DNA of 64,000 bases from Candidatus Peribacteraceae bacterium (GTDB lineage: Bacteria; Patescibacteriota; Gracilibacteria; Peribacterales; Peribacteraceae): assembly GCA_028707875.1 (NCBI GenBank), contig JAQWAC010000001.1, positions 13,829 through 77,828 of the forward strand, read 5' to 3'. The position numbers were made by a program, and so were the translations under genes. Below the pieces are notes generated by a model. The model saw only the letters and a program-made list of their open reading frames with translations. It was not told where the DNA came from and searched no databases. Of this stretch, positions 1,800-51,830 are shown one piece after another (the first letter of the stretch is position 1; each line of letters opens with the position of its first letter).

Positions 1800-3065
1800 G
1801 TGCACCAGTCCCGCTTCAGGAAATTTCTGAAAGCCGTCGGTCCCGGGTTCATCACCGGATCCGCCGATGATGATCCGTCCGGCATCGCCACGTATTCGCA
1901 GACGGGAGCGCAATTCGGCTACACCCAGTTGTGGTTTGTGCTTTTTGTGATGCCGTTTATGATCGCCATTCAGGAGATGTGCGGGCGGATCGGTCTCGTC
2001 ACGGGAAGCGGTCTTTCCGGCGTCATCCGGAAGCATTACTCAAAGCCGCTGCTCTATTGCGCCGTTGCGACCCTCCTCATTGCAAACACGATCAACATCG
2101 GTGCGGATCTGGGGGCGATGGCGTCCTCCGCGGAACTGGTGCTCGGTCTTCCGTACATCTTCTGGCTCATCGGCATGACGGCTTTGATTATTTTCCTCGA
2201 AGTATTCGTTGCATACCGTACGTACGTCAAGGTGCTCAAGTATCTCTGCTTCTCCCTCTTCGCCTATATCATCGCGGCCTTCAGCGTCACGCAGCCGTGG
2301 GGGGAGATTCTCCGTTCGCTCTTCGTGCCCTTCTTCTCCTTCTCCAAGGAGTATCTCTTCAACCTCGTCGCGCTCTTCGGCACCACGATCTCGCCCTACC
2401 TTTTCTTCTGGCAATCGGACGAGGAGGTGGAAGAGGAGATCCTGCATCACCAGATCAGGGATTTCGGCACGGGGATGCCCCATGTCAGCAGCAGGACGAT
2501 GCATGAGATGCGTCTGGACACCTCCATGGGGATGTTCTTCAGCAATCTCATCACATTCTTCATCATCACGACCACGGCATCGACGCTCGGTGCCAACGGG
2601 ATCCGGACCGTCGCGACGGCCACGGAGGCGGCGGAAGCCCTTCAGCCTCTTGCCGGTCCGTTCGCATCGCTCCTGTTCGCCGCAGGCGTCATCGGAACGG
2701 GGCTCCTTGGCGTGCCCATTCTTGCCGCTTCCGCGTCATATGCGATCTCCGAGGCGGTGGGGTGGAAGCCGGGGCTTTTCCGTACGTTCAAGCAGGCGCC
2801 GGGGTTCTATCTGGTGATCGTTCTTTCCACGGTCGTGGGACTTACGGTGAACCTCCTGGGGGTCCCCTCCTTCACCATGCTCTACTACGCGGCCGTTCTT
2901 AACGGAATCATGGCCCCTCCGCTCATGATGTTCATTTTGCTTGTGGCGAACAACCGCGCCATCATGGGGCGCAATACGAACGGATGGTTCTCCAATGTGG
3001 CCGGATTCATTCTGACGATGGCGATGTCGATCGCTGCAGCCGCTCTCATTGTCATGCTCTTCTAG
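1800..3065 (+). CDS. Nramp-family divalent metal cation transporter
   Basis: GTG start. N-terminal GPGFITGSADDDPSGIATYSQTGAQFGY signature of Nramp-like transporters; about 11 hydrophobic segments across 421 aa. Confidence 0.8.
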   Translation: MHQSRFRKFLKAVGPGFITGSADDDPSGIATYSQTGAQFGYTQLWFVLFVMPFMIAIQEMCGRIGLVTGSGLSGVIRKHYSKPLLYCAVATLLIANTINIGADLGAMASSAELVLGLPYIFWLIGMTALIIFLEVFVAYRTYVKVLKYLCFSLFAYIIAAFSVTQPWGEILRSLFVPFFSFSKEYLFNLVALFGTTISPYLFFWQSDEEVEEEILHHQIRDFGTGMPHVSSRTMHEMRLDTSMGMFFSNLITFFIITTTASTLGANGIRTVATATEAAEALQPLAGPFASLLFAAGVIGTGLLGVPILAASASYAISEAVGWKPGLFRTFKQAPGFYLVIVLSTVVGLTVNLLGVPSFTMLYYAAVLNGIMAPPLMMFILLVANNRAIMGRNTNGWFSNVAGFILTMAMSIAAAALIVMLF

Positions 3066-7624: not shown

Positions 7625-8068
7625 ATGTCCGACTCCTGGCTCGATCACATCCCCTCGCACGAACGCCAGCGCATCCTGAAGAGGCTACGCAGTCCGGAGG
7701 AATACGAGAAATTGCGTGAGAAGGTGAAAGGGCCGGAGGATCTGGAGCGGGAGATGGAGAGAAATGAGCGCATGGCCGAGCTGAAGTTTGCGATGGAGAC
7801 CGAACCGAAGTTGAAGAGCGCTCTGAAGGAGCAGGTGGTGGAGGATATCCAGGAACATGGGCTGGAGGAGGTTGTGGAAACAAGTGCATTACCCAAGGAA
7901 GCCAGATCGGCGTTGGAGGCAAGGAAATTCACTCTGACCATTGATGCCAACAAGGTAACGCACGAAGACCAGATCATGGTGGTTCCGGAGGGGAATGTGC
8001 AGGAAGCGGTTCCCGTGAAGCCGACTTTCAGTGACCGGTACGTCGGGCAATTCTCGCGTGACGTCTAA
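7625..8068 (+). CDS. hypothetical protein, highly charged (Glu/Lys-rich)
   Basis: ORF from MSDSWLDHIPSHERQRILKRL; no recognisable family. Confidence 0.55.
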   Translation: MSDSWLDHIPSHERQRILKRLRSPEEYEKLREKVKGPEDLEREMERNERMAELKFAMETEPKLKSALKEQVVEDIQEHGLEEVVETSALPKEARSALEARKFTLTIDANKVTHEDQIMVVPEGNVQEAVPVKPTFSDRYVGQFSRDV

Positions 8069-8251
8069 AGATGATGCGTGCACAGAGAGGCCGCCCGTCC
8101 CGGATTTTCAGAGAGACAGGAACAAGACCCCGAATGCACAGATAAAAAGGAATAGGCGCATGAGGCCGCGCAGCCTACGGCAATTCCGTCCAAATTTTCA
8201 AGTCCGTGAGGAAAAGAGCCCTTGCGTAAGCGCTTCCAACTGAACAAAATA

Positions 8252-8566
8252 TTATTTCAAAAAATCCTTTTGCAATCCCGAGAGTTTGGCCATGTCATCA
8301 TCAGGAGCGGTCTTGTTGGCGATCGTTTTTCCGCAGGTGATGCACCGGTGGACGATCATCCAGCCCTTGCTGCTGCGATGGTCCACTCCCACGGGTTCCA
8401 TGAGGCCGCCGCACGTGGATTCCCGGTCGCCCGGACCACGGTCATCCACATGCTTGGAGAACAGACATTGCGGACAGTGGTTGCGGTAGCTTCCTTTTAG
8501 GAGCGGTTTCACTTCGGCGCCGCAGTGTTCGCAGATGAAGGGCTCTTGGCGAGCAATGAAGGTCAT
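8252..8566 (-). CDS. RNHCP domain-containing protein
   Basis: Contains the literal SYRNHCPQC motif plus CEHC and CITC cysteine pairs. Start at MTFIARQ (ATG 8566). Confidence 0.75.
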   Translation of the reverse strand: MTFIARQEPFICEHCGAEVKPLLKGSYRNHCPQCLFSKHVDDRGPGDRESTCGGLMEPVGVDHRSSKGWMIVHRCITCGKTIANKTAPDDDMAKLSGLQKDFLK

Positions 8567-8567
8567 A

Positions 8568-8607
8568 GGAAACCGAAGAAACCAAAGATGCCGAAGAATC
8601 CGAGGAG
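8568..8607. repeat. left arm of the inverted repeat flanking the four-helix-bundle gene (CCGAAGA words)
   Basis: GGAAACCGAAGAAACCAAAGATGCCGAAGAATCCGAGGAG matches the reverse complement of 9081-9130. Confidence 0.65.
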
Positions 8608-8722
8608 TTCCATAAACTTGCAGAACCGATTGTACCGCTTCCAGATTCACAAAGAAGCAAAAATGAAATATTTGGCAATTTGATGATGAAGATATTTCTT
8701 CGGTTCTCAGTACAGTTATTGC

Positions 8723-9079
8723 ATGCATATTCGCCCATACGAGAAGATAATTGCATGGCAGGAAGCTCATCAGCTGACTCTGTATATTTATAAACTGACA
8801 TCTGGATTTCCTTCACACGAACGATTCGGCCTAATTTCTCAAATGCGTCGTTCAAGCGCCAGTGTTCCTATCAATATTGCCGAGGGGAATGCAAAACGTT
8901 CGCATCGTGAGCGGGCATGTTATCTAGAAAGGGCATCTGCCTCACTTGAAGAACTGCACTATGAATGCGTTCTTGCGCGGGACCTTAGTTACCTGTCCTT
9001 TGCCGAGTACGGAATGTGTGATGATCATATTCAGCGTACGAGTTATCTTCTTACAAAACTTCGATCCAGTATTTGTTAA
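8723..9079 (+). CDS. four-helix-bundle protein (23S rRNA intervening-sequence protein / Avd-like family)
   Basis: AWQEAHQLTLYIYKLTSGFPSHERFGLISQMRRSSASVPINIAEGNAKRS and LEELHY are the family hallmarks. Confidence 0.85.
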   Translation: MHIRPYEKIIAWQEAHQLTLYIYKLTSGFPSHERFGLISQMRRSSASVPINIAEGNAKRSHRERACYLERASASLEELHYECVLARDLSYLSFAEYGMCDDHIQRTSYLLTKLRSSIC

Positions 9080-9080
9080 A

Positions 9081-9130
9081 GCCCTTCGGCTTCATTGGCT
9101 TCTTCGGCATCTTCGGCATCTTCGGCTTCC
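9081..9130. repeat. right arm of the inverted repeat flanking the four-helix-bundle gene
   Basis: Its reverse complement, GGAAGCCGAAGATGCCGAAGATGCCGAAGAAGCCAATGAAGCCGAAGGGC, aligns with 8568-8607. It ends at the ychF stop codon. Confidence 0.65.
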
Positions 9131-10225
9131 TCACACGTTGAACCGGAAATGCATCACGTCCCCGTCACGCACCACATATTCCTTTCCCTCCGCGCGCATC
9201 TTGCCGGCCTCCTTGGCCTTGAGCTCGCCTCCGAGCGTCACGTAATCCTGATAGGCGATCGTTTCCGCACGGATGAAGCCTTTCTCGAAGTCCGTGTGGA
9301 TGACGCCTGCGGCCTGCGGGGCCGTCCAGCCTTTGCGGATGGTCCACGCACGCACCTCCTGCGGTCCGGCGGTGAAGTAGGTCTGGTAGCCGAGGGCGGC
9401 ATAGGCGGCTTGGATGAGTTGTGAGAGGCCCGAGGAGTTCACGGAGAACTGCTTCAGGAAGGCCGCCGCCTCCTCTTCCGGAAGCTCCTGCACATCTTCT
9501 TCGATCTTGGCGGAAACAGTGATCACCTGCGCCGTGTCCGGGAGCTTCAGTTGCCTGCGGGCTTCGTGGATGCTCACGGTGTGCAGCTGGTCCTCGGCCA
9601 CATTGGCCGCGTAGACGACGGGCTTGAGCGTGAGGAGGTTGAACTGTTTCGCAATCAATTCCTCATCGGCGGGGAGCGGTGCGGTGATCGCCATCTGTCC
9701 GGCCTTCAGTGCGGTGAGAATCTTTTCGAGAACGACGAGCTCCTTCACCTTCTCTTTATCTCCTGTGCGTGCTTCGCTCTGCAACTTCTTCTGCCTTTTC
9801 TCGAGCGAATCCATGTCGGAGAGGATCAGTTCCACTTCCACGGTCTCGCGGTCACGGGCGGGGTCCACGGATCCTTCCACATGGATGACATCGTTGCCGG
9901 GGAAGAGACGTACCACTTCGCAGAGCGCATCGACTTCCCGGATGGCGGCGAGGAATTTATTTCCGAGACCTTCCCCTTTGCTGGCGCCGCGGACGAGGCC
10001 GGCGATATCCACGAATTCGATGGCGGCGGGGATGATCTTCTCGGGCTGCACGAGATCGGCAAGTTTCTTCAGGCGTTCATCCGGCACCTCCACAATGCCC
10101 ACATTCGGTTCGATGGTGCAGAACGGATAGTTTGCCGCCTGGGCGCCGCGGGTGCGCGTGAGTGCGTTGAAGAGCGTCGATTTGCCGACGTTTGGCAGGC
10201 CTATGATTCCGATTCGAAGTGCCAT
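9131..10225 (-). CDS. ychF: redox-regulated ribosome-binding ATPase YchF
   Basis: MALRIGIIGLPNVGKSTLFNALT, FCTIEPN, FVDIAGLV, C-terminal TGS-like domain. Confidence 0.95.
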   Translation of the reverse strand: MALRIGIIGLPNVGKSTLFNALTRTRGAQAANYPFCTIEPNVGIVEVPDERLKKLADLVQPEKIIPAAIEFVDIAGLVRGASKGEGLGNKFLAAIREVDALCEVVRLFPGNDVIHVEGSVDPARDRETVEVELILSDMDSLEKRQKKLQSEARTGDKEKVKELVVLEKILTALKAGQMAITAPLPADEELIAKQFNLLTLKPVVYAANVAEDQLHTVSIHEARRQLKLPDTAQVITVSAKIEEDVQELPEEEAAAFLKQFSVNSSGLSQLIQAAYAALGYQTYFTAGPQEVRAWTIRKGWTAPQAAGVIHTDFEKGFIRAETIAYQDYVTLGGELKAKEAGKMRAEGKEYVVRDGDVMHFRFNV

Positions 10226-12844: not shown

Positions 12845-12899
12845 ACGAAGAAATGAAGCTTGTTAGGTTGTAGCTGGTTAGCTTCTTAGAGTACTTCGT
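12845..12899. repeat. word-periodic imperfect hairpin (GAAG/AGCT words), element C; likely terminator of the ATPase gene
   Basis: ACGAAG..GAAGCT-loop-AGCTTC..CTTCGT. AT-rich spacer downstream of the ATPase-1 stop. Confidence 0.45.
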
Positions 12900-12942
12900 A
12901 AAAGATAAGAAGCAAGGAAGCTTAAGAAGCTCTCAGCCGAAA

Positions 12943-24518: not shown

Positions 24519-26792
<2,274 letters not shown>

Positions 26793-49866: not shown

Positions 49867-50310
49867 TCAATTCCTCGAGACATTGATGCCGAGCTCTTTC
49901 AGTCTCCTGCAGACGGCTTTTTGAAGTCGATGAAGGAAGATAACTCTTTTGACGCATCCGAACTGTGCTGCGATGGCAAGCTCTTCGCGTAAGTTCAACG
50001 TAAAATCATTGTTAGTGAGATCGTGGAGAATATCCGATTCGGGATCTTCATGGTCCACGCGGGAAATACATAAGGAGATGATTTCCTTTTCATCTGCACG
50101 GATTTGATCGATGAGTTGGCGGATACTCTCTTCCGTACGTTGTTCCACATAGTGATCGAGTCTCCGCCACAGAATGAAGATTCGTCGCTCAATATCGTCG
50201 AGTGCATCCGTCAGTTCATTTTTCTCCGCATTCGGGTCATCGGATTGTCTGGCCTGCAGAGTTATTTGCACAGCCCGATCGGGAGTCCATGGGGCGAGGG
50301 TGGATTCCAT
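49867..50310 (-). CDS. hypothetical protein
   Basis: 147-aa ORF in a lower-GC stretch; no family recognised. Confidence 0.5.
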   Translation of the reverse strand: MESTLAPWTPDRAVQITLQARQSDDPNAEKNELTDALDDIERRIFILWRRLDHYVEQRTEESIRQLIDQIRADEKEIISLCISRVDHEDPESDILHDLTNNDFTLNLREELAIAAQFGCVKRVIFLHRLQKAVCRRLKELGINVSRN

Positions 50311-50360
50311 TGTGCGGGCATTCTATTCGTGCGGAACCCGTTGTCCACAACGGGGGGAGA

Positions 50361-51830
50361 ATGCCGTATGCTGCTCCGGTGGATCATCCCTTCGACCGTT
50401 ATGCGGCGTTCACGGATCTTGCAGCTTTGAAGGAAGCAAGCATCCGGCCTCTGCGCAAGTGCGTGCGCGTGAACACACTTAAATGTTCCGTGGAAACGTT
50501 CAAAGCATGGGCGAAGGAAAAGGGGTGGAAACTCACGCCCGTTCCATGGAGCAGGGAGGGATTTTTTGTGGAGCGCGAGGATCATGCGACGGCATTGGGG
50601 CGTGACTTGCGGCATTTGCTCGGACACTTTTACATGCAGGAGGCCTCCAGCATGCTGCCGGTTTCATTGCTTGATCCCCAACCCGGTGAGGCGGTGCTCG
50701 ATTTGTGTGCGGCCCCCGGGAGCAAGACGACGCAGATGGCGGATGCCATGCAGGGAAGGGGAGTCATCATTGCGAATGACATGCAGGAGAAACGTCTCCG
50801 CATTCTCTGCGATGCGCTGCAGCGGACGGGAGCGGCGAGCGTGGTTGTCACGCGCAAGGTGGGGCAGTGGTTTGGCAATCACATGACCGAGCGCTTTGAT
50901 CGCGTGCTCTGTGATGCGCCATGTACCGCGCAGGGAACGTCGCGCAAGGATCCGACGGCGCTCACATACTGTTCCACGGCATCCATCATCAGTGCGGCGC
51001 GCCTGCAGCATGAGCTTCTGGAAGCGGCGGTCCATGCGGCCAAAGTCGGAGGGCGCATCGTCTATTCCACCTGCACGCTCACGCCGGAGGAGAACGAAGC
51101 CGTTGCACTCGATATATTGAACAAATATTGTGATCAATTGGAAGTCGTTCAGCCGCCTGAGTTCGCAATGGAAAATGGAAAATGGACAATGGAAAATGCC
51201 GTCGAGGATTCATTGAAAGTGCAGAAATATCTTCAGAAGGAGCATAATGATCAATCATCCATTATCCATTATCCATTTCTTCGCTTGTGGCCCCAGACCT
51301 ACAACACCGAGGGATTCTTCTGTGCTGTCTTCAGGAAAGTGAAACGGACGAAGGAGCCGCAACACACGGATCTGGCGAAGAGAACCTCTGCGCCGCTTCC
51401 CAAAGCGAAGCGTGTAACACTCCAAAAATTGATGAAGGAACAGTTTGGGACGGATTTTCTTCAGGAAGGCGATGCTCTGGTCGAGCGCATGCAGCAGGTG
51501 CTTCTGACGACGGAAATGGCGGACGGCTTCCCGTTGCCTGTCACGGATTACGCCTGCGGGATTCCCTTTTCGAAGATGCTTCCCGACGGACGCTTCCGCG
51601 TGACGAATGAACTTGTTTCCTTGCGCGGCGAAATGGCGAAGAAGCAGACGATGGATCTGAGTGATGATCAGCTTTCCCTGCTCCTTTCCGGCAGAGACCT
51701 CACCTGCAGCGGTTCATTGAAGGGCGATACGATTCTCACCTTCCGCGGCATCTCCTTGGGGTTGGGACTTGCGAAGGAAGGAGTGCTTTTGAATCGATTG
51801 CCCAGATGGGTGGTGAAGCTGGGCAGCTGA
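50361..51830 (+). CDS. NOL1/NOP2/Sun (RsmB/RsmF-like) rRNA cytosine-C5 methyltransferase
   Basis: DLCAAPGSKTTQ (SAM motif), DAPCTAQGT, YSTCTLTPEENE. Start at MPYAAPV (50361). Confidence 0.85.
   Translation: MPYAAPVDHPFDRYAAFTDLAALKEASIRPLRKCVRVNTLKCSVETFKAWAKEKGWKLTPVPWSREGFFVEREDHATALGRDLRHLLGHFYMQEASSMLPVSLLDPQPGEAVLDLCAAPGSKTTQMADAMQGRGVIIANDMQEKRLRILCDALQRTGAASVVVTRKVGQWFGNHMTERFDRVLCDAPCTAQGTSRKDPTALTYCSTASIISAARLQHELLEAAVHAAKVGGRIVYSTCTLTPEENEAVALDILNKYCDQLEVVQPPEFAMENGKWTMENAVEDSLKVQKYLQKEHNDQSSIIHYPFLRLWPQTYNTEGFFCAVFRKVKRTKEPQHTDLAKRTSAPLPKAKRVTLQKLMKEQFGTDFLQEGDALVERMQQVLLTTEMADGFPLPVTDYACGIPFSKMLPDGRFRVTNELVSLRGEMAKKQTMDLSDDQLSLLLSGRDLTCSGSLKGDTILTFRGISLGLGLAKEGVLLNRLPRWVVKLGS
51165..51284. 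repeat. in-frame word-periodic palindromic insertion (AATGGAAA words) inside the methyltransferase CDS
   Basis: Left arm GCAATGGAAAATGGAAAATGGACAATGGAAAATGCC. The right-arm reverse complement reads GAAATGGATAATGGATAATGGATGATTGATC. Encodes AMENGKWTMENA...SSIIHYPFL. Lower GC than the flanks. Confidence 0.65.

Follow-up and report, generated by a model that had tools for sequence, protein, structure and literature searches.

In the genome of a Candidatus Peribacteraceae bacterium (Peregrinibacteria, Candidate Phyla Radiation (CPR); 1.32 Mb, 98.6% complete), a 118-aa gene of the four-helix-bundle (4HB) family PF05635 lies between two complementary arrays of short tandem repeats, and together they fill the junction between ychF and an RNHCP-domain gene. 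We analysed this unit, segment 8567-9130 of a 64,000-nt stretch of contig JAQWAC010000001.1 (the window; assembly GCA_028707875.1), in its own genome, at the same junction in relatives and around homologous genes in other bacteria. In our judgement the segment is probably a gene-bearing hairpin cassette of the intervening sequence (IVS) type that sits at an operon junction, is probably selfish and encodes a protein tied to its own repeats. The cassette and its neighbours are laid out as follows.

8252-8566, minus strand: RNHCP-domain gene, 104 aa, downstream partner of ychF (PF12647, E = 3.8e-34); its start codon adjoins the left arm.
8567-8606, no strand assigned: left arm, about four purine-rich tandem 9-nt units (GAAGAAACC / AAAGATGCC / GAAGAATCC), from the repeat search and Tandem Repeats Finder (TRF, period 9).
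8607-8722, plus strand: leader of about 115 nt from the left arm to the start codon, found in all four orthologous cassettes that are antisense to ychF.
8723-9079, plus strand: 4HB gene, 118 aa, PF05635 / TIGR02436, from profile matches and predicted structure.
9080-9091, no strand assigned: 12-nt spacer that leads from the stop codon of the 4HB gene to the right arm, read from the sequence.
9092-9130, no strand assigned: right arm, tandem 9-nt units (GGCTTCTTC / GGCATCTTC twice), complement of the left arm, from the repeat search, TRF and the fold.
9131-10225, minus strand: ychF, 364 aa (TIGR00092, 481.7 bits); its stop codon adjoins the right arm.

The repeat search placed the two arms at 8567-8606 and 9092-9131, 40 nt each, 83% complementary and 485 nt apart, with the open reading frame (ORF) enclosed between them; this is the sole long inverted repeat of such quality at a spacing of up to 1.5 kb in the window. 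With up to 3 mismatches allowed, the unit GCCGAAGATGCCGAAGA matched five times within the arms and seven times in the whole window, against an expectation of 0.41. RNA folding of 8550-9150 pairs the arms with each other in the minimum-energy structure and in the centroid alike (z = -3.4; none of 20 shuffles did as well). Local alignment of the upstream flank with the reverse-complemented downstream flank gave an arm score of 45, compared with 17.4 ± 2.5 (maximum 37) at 3000 random places of the same geometry in the genome. Arms and gene occupy the whole gap from the ychF stop to the RNHCP start: the left arm starts at the base right next to the RNHCP start codon (8564-8566, minus strand), and the right arm reaches the ychF stop codon (9131-9133, minus strand). 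The 4HB gene is antisense to both neighbours, and GC content within the segment is 0.39-0.49 vs 0.565 genome-wide. A scan of 8200-9400 found no sigma-70 promoter consensus at the arms or leader and no intrinsic terminator (a short GC-rich hairpin with a T-run) at the arms; a promoter in the leader is suspected. No PADLOC defence-system model matched. An earlier, sequence-only reading of this DNA had described a 4HB gene of the 23S-IVS/Avd family between reverse-complementary arms that abut the RNHCP start and the ychF stop; the observation is confirmed, the two arm sequences that it quoted are correct, and the pairing and the family assignment are borne out by the fold and by the profile matches given next.

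To our knowledge the very large PF05635 family has no assigned function. The 118-aa ORF matches PF05635 (E = 1.6e-29; 102.7 bits, cut-off 33.8) and TIGR02436 (94.7 bits, cut-off 24) well above their cut-offs. Its AlphaFold model is a four-helix bundle (pLDDT 97) with a TM-score of 0.95 to Xcc0516 (PDB 2GSC; sequence match E = 3.7e-18) and of 0.80-0.83 to 2RLD, and lower-ranked fold matches include BT_0352 and Avd (PDB 8UB7), a protein of diversity-generating retroelements (DGRs). The family motif G..R...S...N..E (PMC3936711) is present as SQMRR..S.P.NIAEG, and Q40, S47, N51, E54 and G55 are invariant in the alignment. Comparison of the orthologous genes of the four antisense cassettes gave a dN of 0.17-0.29 at saturated dS; the protein is under purifying selection.

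Segment 8567-9130 is an insertion into an otherwise tight junction that has been occupied repeatedly within the family. The placement of RNHCP after ychF is conserved in the family, and in 9 of the 29 related loci examined 0-7 nt separate the ychF stop from the RNHCP start, or the two codons overlap (TGATG). The junction is empty in genome G016, whose ychF is 83% identical and which is the sister of the source genome on the ychF tree (support 97/93); the sequence-only reading had proposed a search for such an empty site. Elsewhere the junction holds 4HB cassettes in the sense orientation (loci L005 and L177), gene-less 9-mer hairpins of 97-99 nt (L154 and L176) or, in some relatives, unrelated small ORFs. 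At L164 a 182-nt remnant retains only the first 9 and last 11 codons of the 4HB gene (MRPYEKLIE* and YLINKLRSSVA*) between 9-mer arms; a cassette can decay to a gene-less hairpin. The antisense layout RNHCP(-) / 4HB(+) / ychF(-) recurs on the metagenomic contigs that encode the closest proteins (71-74% identity), from three further lineages, Candidatus Peregrinibacteria CG1_02_54_53 being one carrier, and this indicates that the antisense cassette was inherited within a sub-lineage. Filled, remnant, hairpin and empty states are scattered on the ychF tree, and the filled and the empty state are each met with in many genera. This favours repeated gains over a single one, and the junction is a hot spot unless many precise losses took place.

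The junction attracts several kinds of hairpin-associated inserts. At L160 (genome G009) and L169 (genome G004) it is occupied by IS200/RAYT-like (HUH Y1) transposase genes (RAYT, REP-associated tyrosine transposase; REP, repetitive extragenic palindrome), and the gene at L169 is flanked by GC-rich REP-like hairpins.

The arms of the orthologous cassettes have changed in step. Among the four orthologs, each 5' arm pairs best with its own 3' arm, and the 5' arm of segment 8567-9130 scores 45 with its own partner vs 19-25 with the 3' arms of the orthologs. The unit is GAAGATGCC at this locus vs GAGGAGGCA or ACAGAAGNN in the orthologous cassettes, and the C/A difference at its last position is present in every 5' unit and mirrored by G/T in every 3' unit. 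The arms have been kept complementary beyond synonymous saturation via coordinated changes in both arrays, which, at saturated dS, indicates selection for pairing or gene conversion between the arms and no young duplication scar.

The 5' arms are rich in G (33%) and poor in C (10%), and at 100 of the 112 armed loci they have more G than C. Since a G-first/C-last inverted repeat reads alike on either strand, reverse complementation leaves this polarity unchanged; it belongs to the hairpin and was ruled out as a marker of gene orientation. Rho avoidance finds no support as its cause in the source genome, which has no Rho above the cut-off (best matches 35 bits vs a 509-bit cut-off) and yet keeps the polarity. 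Attempts to read the functional RNA strand from wobble pairs gave no signal, and the duplex energies of the four orthologs favour neither strand consistently.

The layout extends to every member of the family in this genome. All four PF05635 genes are bracketed by complementary low-complexity arms, as the sequence-only reading had suggested checking, and the arm units differ among all four: GTATTAA-type on contig C36 (arm score 35), GAAGATGCC-type at segment 8567-9130 (45), GAAATAAAG-type on C58 (40) and AAGTGGA-type on C29 (24), against the genome background of 17.4. In the C36 copy (C36:19629-19943) a TAG replaces an invariant Trp codon, so that this copy is probably a pseudogene; single in-frame stops were also seen in the 4HB copies of several relatives. 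Upstream of the C58 cassette (about C58:8830-9080), the last ~25 codons of a glutamine-amidotransferase-like gene are present twice, parted by a structured repeat of ~105 nt, and the second, older copy runs into the 5' arm of the cassette.

Outside this genome, PF05635 genes occur in 45 of 61 related genomes and are absent from 16; the highest number is 24 copies in 1.1 Mb. Arms were scored in three samples of loci, each controlled by non-cognate arm pairs. RNAduplex on long flanks pairs almost anything, and local alignment with controls was used instead.

Peribacteria relatives: 58 loci; cognate median 37, non-cognate median 18.
Public genomes, 21 CPR and 57 non-CPR: 78 loci; 64 of 78 score at least 28, non-cognate 95th percentile 25.
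Loci found with the Xcc0516 sequence: 76 loci; 62 of 76 above the non-cognate 95th percentile.

The armed layout is common around the 4HB family across the bacterial phyla sampled; the 78-locus sample includes Acidobacteriota, Planctomycetota, Bacteroidota, Bacillota, Actinomycetota, Pseudomonadota, Verrucomicrobiota, Nitrospirota and others. The arm period among the 112 armed loci is mostly 7 nt (63 loci), followed by 9 nt (19) and 8 nt (14). None of the 140 4HB loci compared with 23S rRNA, from the first two samples, lies in a 23S gene. The gene-in-hairpin layout is described in print only for rRNA IVSs; our full-text searches of the open literature, with subscription-only papers outside their scope, found no paper that connects PF05635 genes located outside rRNA with inverted repeat arrays on either side. 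The Xcc0516 ortholog of Xanthomonas vasicola (L387:1140-1620) lies between accB and accC and is flanked by GGGAATCGGGAGTGGAGAATCGGGAATCGG and its complement. These arms are inverted GGGAATC arrays, the heptamer repeats that were studied in Xanthomonas as G-quadruplex formers and reported as partly inverted and unexplained, with no mention of the gene (PMC4692102).

The arm unit and its period are inherited together with the protein lineage. Arm similarity is correlated with protein similarity (Spearman 0.175; 300 permutations reached at most 0.084), and AGTGGTT arms accompany related proteins in a gammaproteobacterium, Ruminococcus, a planctomycete and a Peribacteria genome. Period-9 cassettes are concentrated in one protein clade (17 of 19, support 95), requiring 4 label changes compared with 17.8 after shuffling, and none of 500 shuffles was as low. 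In genome G010, two cassettes (G010:C3:130300-130900 and 137930-138520; L303) lie 7.6 kb apart in opposite orientation and share 87.6% nucleotide identity over 517 nt and 92% protein identity, with unrelated flanks. The shared stretch opens with a small GTTCTG...CAGAAC hairpin and its T-run, ~45 nt ahead of the 5' arm, and stops where the 3' arm ends. As the identity includes the arms but not the flanks, the whole armed unit was copied to a second locus. Both cassettes adjoin aminoacyl-tRNA synthetase-like genes.

Hairpins of the same kind occur without a gene. A TRF-based census of inverted tandem-repeat hairpins, run with the same pipeline in seven genomes, gave the following counts.

Source genome: four 4HB genes, 35 hairpins, 1.32 Mb.
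G010: eight 4HB genes, 31 hairpins, 400 kb.
G004: nine 4HB genes, 30 hairpins, 400 kb.
G001: no 4HB gene, no hairpin, 396 kb.
G007: no 4HB gene, no hairpin, 400 kb.
G015: no 4HB gene, no hairpin, 270 kb.
G057: no 4HB gene, no true hairpin (seven AT-rich artefacts), 400 kb.

Hairpin density in the three carriers of 4HB genes is 2.6-7.75 per 100 kb. Units are common to cassettes and gene-less hairpins: the CCGAAGANN unit of segment 8567-9130 recurs in gene-less hairpins at C34:18985, C48:14548 and C74:1364, AAGTGGA hairpins are found at C36:10000 and at window position 24580, and the gene-less hairpins of G010 and G004 have the units of cassettes in the same genome. The link to empty hairpins that the sequence-only reading had drawn within the window thus holds for the genomes sampled. 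In the source genome the hairpins are mostly intergenic, often start 0-20 nt from a gene end and occur in all orientations of the neighbouring genes; about 25 of them are of the AATGGAT type. CGAAG was observed in the loop directly before the 3' arm in at least 10 of 23 AATGGAT hairpins (C12, C15, C34, C38, C44, C5, C52 and C57), the loops being otherwise unrelated and 3-45 nt long. Long-range AATGGA pairs around ordinary genes (C59:27209/28079, C2:9408/10191 and C59:22906/23951) proved to be neighbouring hairpins and no cassettes. The window itself contains these gene-less hairpins, none with an assigned strand.

12857-12931 (C46:26685-26759): tandem units of ~8 nt (AGCTTGTT...), 16-nt loop, intergenic, from the TRF census.
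24580-24658: hairpin (GAAGAACGAAGTGGAAAG / CTTTCCACATCGTTCTTC) with a 43-nt loop and a unit like the AAGTGGA-like arms of the C29 cassette.
51173-51278: AATGGA-type heptamer hairpin, in frame inside a 542-aa NOL1/NOP2/Sun-like methyltransferase ORF (50202-51830).

The hairpin at 24580-24658 overlaps the predicted start (24606) of a 728-aa ORF that ends at 26792. That at 51173-51278 encodes ...MENGKWTMEN...SIIHYPF..., and translated copies of the AATGGA repeat also occur in ORFs on C59 (22797-24218) and C2 (9940-).

The 23S rRNA gene of the source genome (C2:1-3529, minus strand), which the sequence-only reading had named as a place to compare, is ~880 nt longer than the bacterial model. The extra sequence lies at E. 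coli positions ~130-189 and 1404-1600 and in a 526-nt ORF-less insert at 1951/1952, the last of which is a site of frequent LAGLIDADG-encoding insertions in CPR bacteria. Each of these three IVS-like insertions holds a GTAT-type heptamer hairpin (C2:3256-3348, 1776-1861 and 741-833), and this unit type is that of the C36 cassette arms. The rRNA of this genome contains no 4HB gene, and no group I intron model reached the Rfam threshold in the 23S gene. In other CPR bacteria, rRNA insertions do carry PF05635 ORFs (PMC11270868), and ORFs of the family have also been found inside cas operons (PMC3936711).

One of the closest known counterparts is the 23S IVS of Coxiella burnetii (helix 45), Leptospira and Brucella (PMC4990558). 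In Coxiella, a 28-bp terminal stem is cleaved by RNase III and encloses an S23p ORF beside variable-number tandem GACAGAT heptamers (PMC4990558). S23p belongs to the PF05635 family, and the gene in the loop of an inverted-repeat stem, the tandem repeats beside the ORF, the size of ~430-560 nt and a host that encodes RNase III are common to the two; the resemblance to ORF-bearing 23S IVSs proposed in the sequence-only reading therefore extends to these details. The cassette differs in that it lies outside any rRNA gene, between two protein-coding genes and antisense to them, in that its unit is 9 nt long and its arms are tandem arrays throughout, and in that excision is known for the IVS whereas the cassette is known from sequence.

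Other systems share some of these properties. Like a RAYT gene flanked by inverted REPs in the REPIN/RAYT systems, the cassette is a protein gene bracketed by inverted repeat copies that are also dispersed as gene-less hairpins at gene ends (in the source genome, G010 and G004), and different gene lineages go with different repeats. Unlike a RAYT, its product is a 118-aa helical bundle without an HUH/Y1 catalytic motif, and the copies of its repeats, which are tandem arrays, resemble each other in unit without being near-identical. Miniature inverted-repeat transposable elements and their autonomous parents likewise come in gene-bearing and gene-less forms with the same inverted ends, as the deletion derivative L164 does here, whereas the cassette has neither a transposase nor a target-site duplication, and its ends are tandem arrays that differ between copies. 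We know of no transposition chemistry for 4HB cassettes. Avd of DGRs (PDB 4DWL and 8UB7) is a homologous four-helix bundle that grips structured RNA, and the solved Avd and Xcc0516 structures are pentameric; the cassette differs in having no reverse transcriptase or template/variable repeat (TR/VR) and in scoring below the Avd cut-off. Tandem heptamers have been described as GGGAATC in Xanthomonas and GGGGA(C/T)T in Nostoc (PMC4692102) and as TAACTGA in Beggiatoaceae (PMC4679880). These are also intergenic 7-nt arrays, often in convergent inverted pairs able to form stem-loops, but the papers name no associated gene family and discuss G-quadruplexes or translational regulation (PMC4692102, PMC4679880).

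We propose the following mechanism for a cassette made of a G/A-rich tandem array, a PF05635 gene and a complementary C/T-rich array. Transcription from either strand would fold the arms into a duplex of 30-40 bp. By analogy with Coxiella and other IVSs, the RNase III that this genome encodes (235.7 bits) could cut the duplex, and the cut would detach the insert from the host RNA and so limit harm to the host. The 4HB protein, presumably a pentamer and a homolog of the RNA-binding Avd, may bind its own repeat stem and might favour the maintenance or spread of cognate hairpins, akin to RAYT genes and REPIN hairpins.

Several observations weigh against a selfish cassette whose protein spreads its own hairpins. 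No recognisable catalytic enzyme or transposase is encoded by the cassette, and no direct repeat that could be a target-site duplication is present at the junctions TGA|GGAAGCC...GGTTTCC|TATG. Two copies from one genome differ as much as two from different genomes (median 43% identity), and the G010 pair (~88% identity) is the sole within-genome copy detected, so that no young copies are seen. AATGGAT, the commonest hairpin family of the source genome, has no cassette with that unit. The all-or-none association of hairpins with 4HB genes compares 3 genomes with 4 (exact p ~0.03), the 4HB-free ones sampled at 270-400 kb and with no phylogenetic correction. The armed share, ~80% of the 212 sampled loci in more than 15 phyla, comes from best-scoring homologs with a graded score and is no unbiased estimate. 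Finally, arm mismatches comprise 47 sense-compatible G.U pairs vs 51 antisense-compatible ones and 124 others; with no strand-specific G.U excess, selection on the RNA of one strand is not demonstrated, and DNA pairing or gene conversion between the arms fits equally well.

An alternative that we consider unlikely is a regulatory system of the host, in which the 4HB protein is an RNA/DNA-binding regulator or chaperone, the gene-end hairpins are its sites and its own gene lies in one of them for autoregulation. Such a system would account for the purifying selection on the protein, for hairpins that mostly adjoin gene ends, share units with the cassette arms and occur only where a 4HB gene does among the genomes sampled, and for the structured RNA bound by Avd homologs, with 8UB7 among the fold matches. 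It fits poorly with the patchy distribution (none in 16 of 61 related genomes and up to 24 copies elsewhere), with different arms for each paralog and with presence and absence alternating between sister genomes at one junction. Pseudogenes and deletion remnants, hairpins inserted in rRNA and within an ORF, and related protein-arm combinations in unrelated phyla also speak against it.

Still less likely, in our view, is that the hairpins are a mobile or pre-existing entity moved by another enzyme, the candidate being an IS200/RAYT-type Y1 transposase acting on DNA hairpins, and that the 4HB gene is passive cargo in their loops. In agreement with this, two relatives have IS200/RAYT-like genes at the same junction, in one case accompanied by GC-rich hairpins, the arms show no G.U signature, the AATGGAT family lacks a cognate cassette, and the genome has a single weak Y1_Tnp match (C12, 29 bits), which lies away from the cassette. 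A sequence-specific transposase fits poorly, however, with arms that differ from locus to locus. In the three genomes surveyed, no gene family but 4HB was found as cargo of long-loop repeat hairpins, and 4HB genes have such arms in more than 15 phyla. Arm period follows protein clade, and the 4HB-free genomes sampled have no hairpins.

It is very improbable that there is no system at all and that slippage-prone repeats or palindromes arise spontaneously, their complementarity being coincidental or the scar of a recent duplication: tandem repeats do expand by slippage and the arms are imperfect, but cognate and non-cognate scores are clearly apart in three independent samples, the score of this locus stands far above the genome background, complementarity outlasts the saturation of synonymous sites, and the 5' arm is G-rich and C-poor at nearly all armed loci. 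Least credible of all is an Avd-type accessory gene or remnant of a DGR: the fold is similar to Avd and the Avd-type models match weakly (PF22296, bAvd, 21.9 bits; NF033474, DivGenRetAVD, 34 bits), but both scores are far under their cut-offs (40 and 80 bits), the 98.6% complete genome has no reverse transcriptase (RVT_1, PF00078), and no TR/VR direct repeat lies near the cassette, with no long direct repeats in 8000-9700, as the sequence-only reading had also noted.

For three decades, rRNA IVSs with an S23p ORF have been a curiosity, and few unexplained intergenic repeats of bacteria are as common as tandem heptamers. The locus described here and the comparisons built on it connect the S23p-ORF IVSs, the PF05635 family and the tandem heptamer repeats. 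We put forward tentatively, as a conjecture somewhat short of even odds, that PF05635 pentamers and hairpins of tandem 7-9-nt repeats form one two-part system across bacteria. The protein of each lineage would be specific for its own unit and period and, without a known nuclease or recombinase fold, would generate, maintain or spread the cognate hairpins in DNA or RNA. 23S IVSs, operon-junction cassettes and heptamer repeats, such as the Xanthomonas GGGAATC arrays and the cyanobacterial arrays of the short tandemly repeated repetitive (STRR) type, would be products of this system. The findings also bear on annotation, as the arms are often read as open frames that lengthen the gene calls next to them, and both rRNA and coding sequences can contain hairpins. 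In CPR bacteria, hairpin cassettes help to explain where some rRNA insertions come from.

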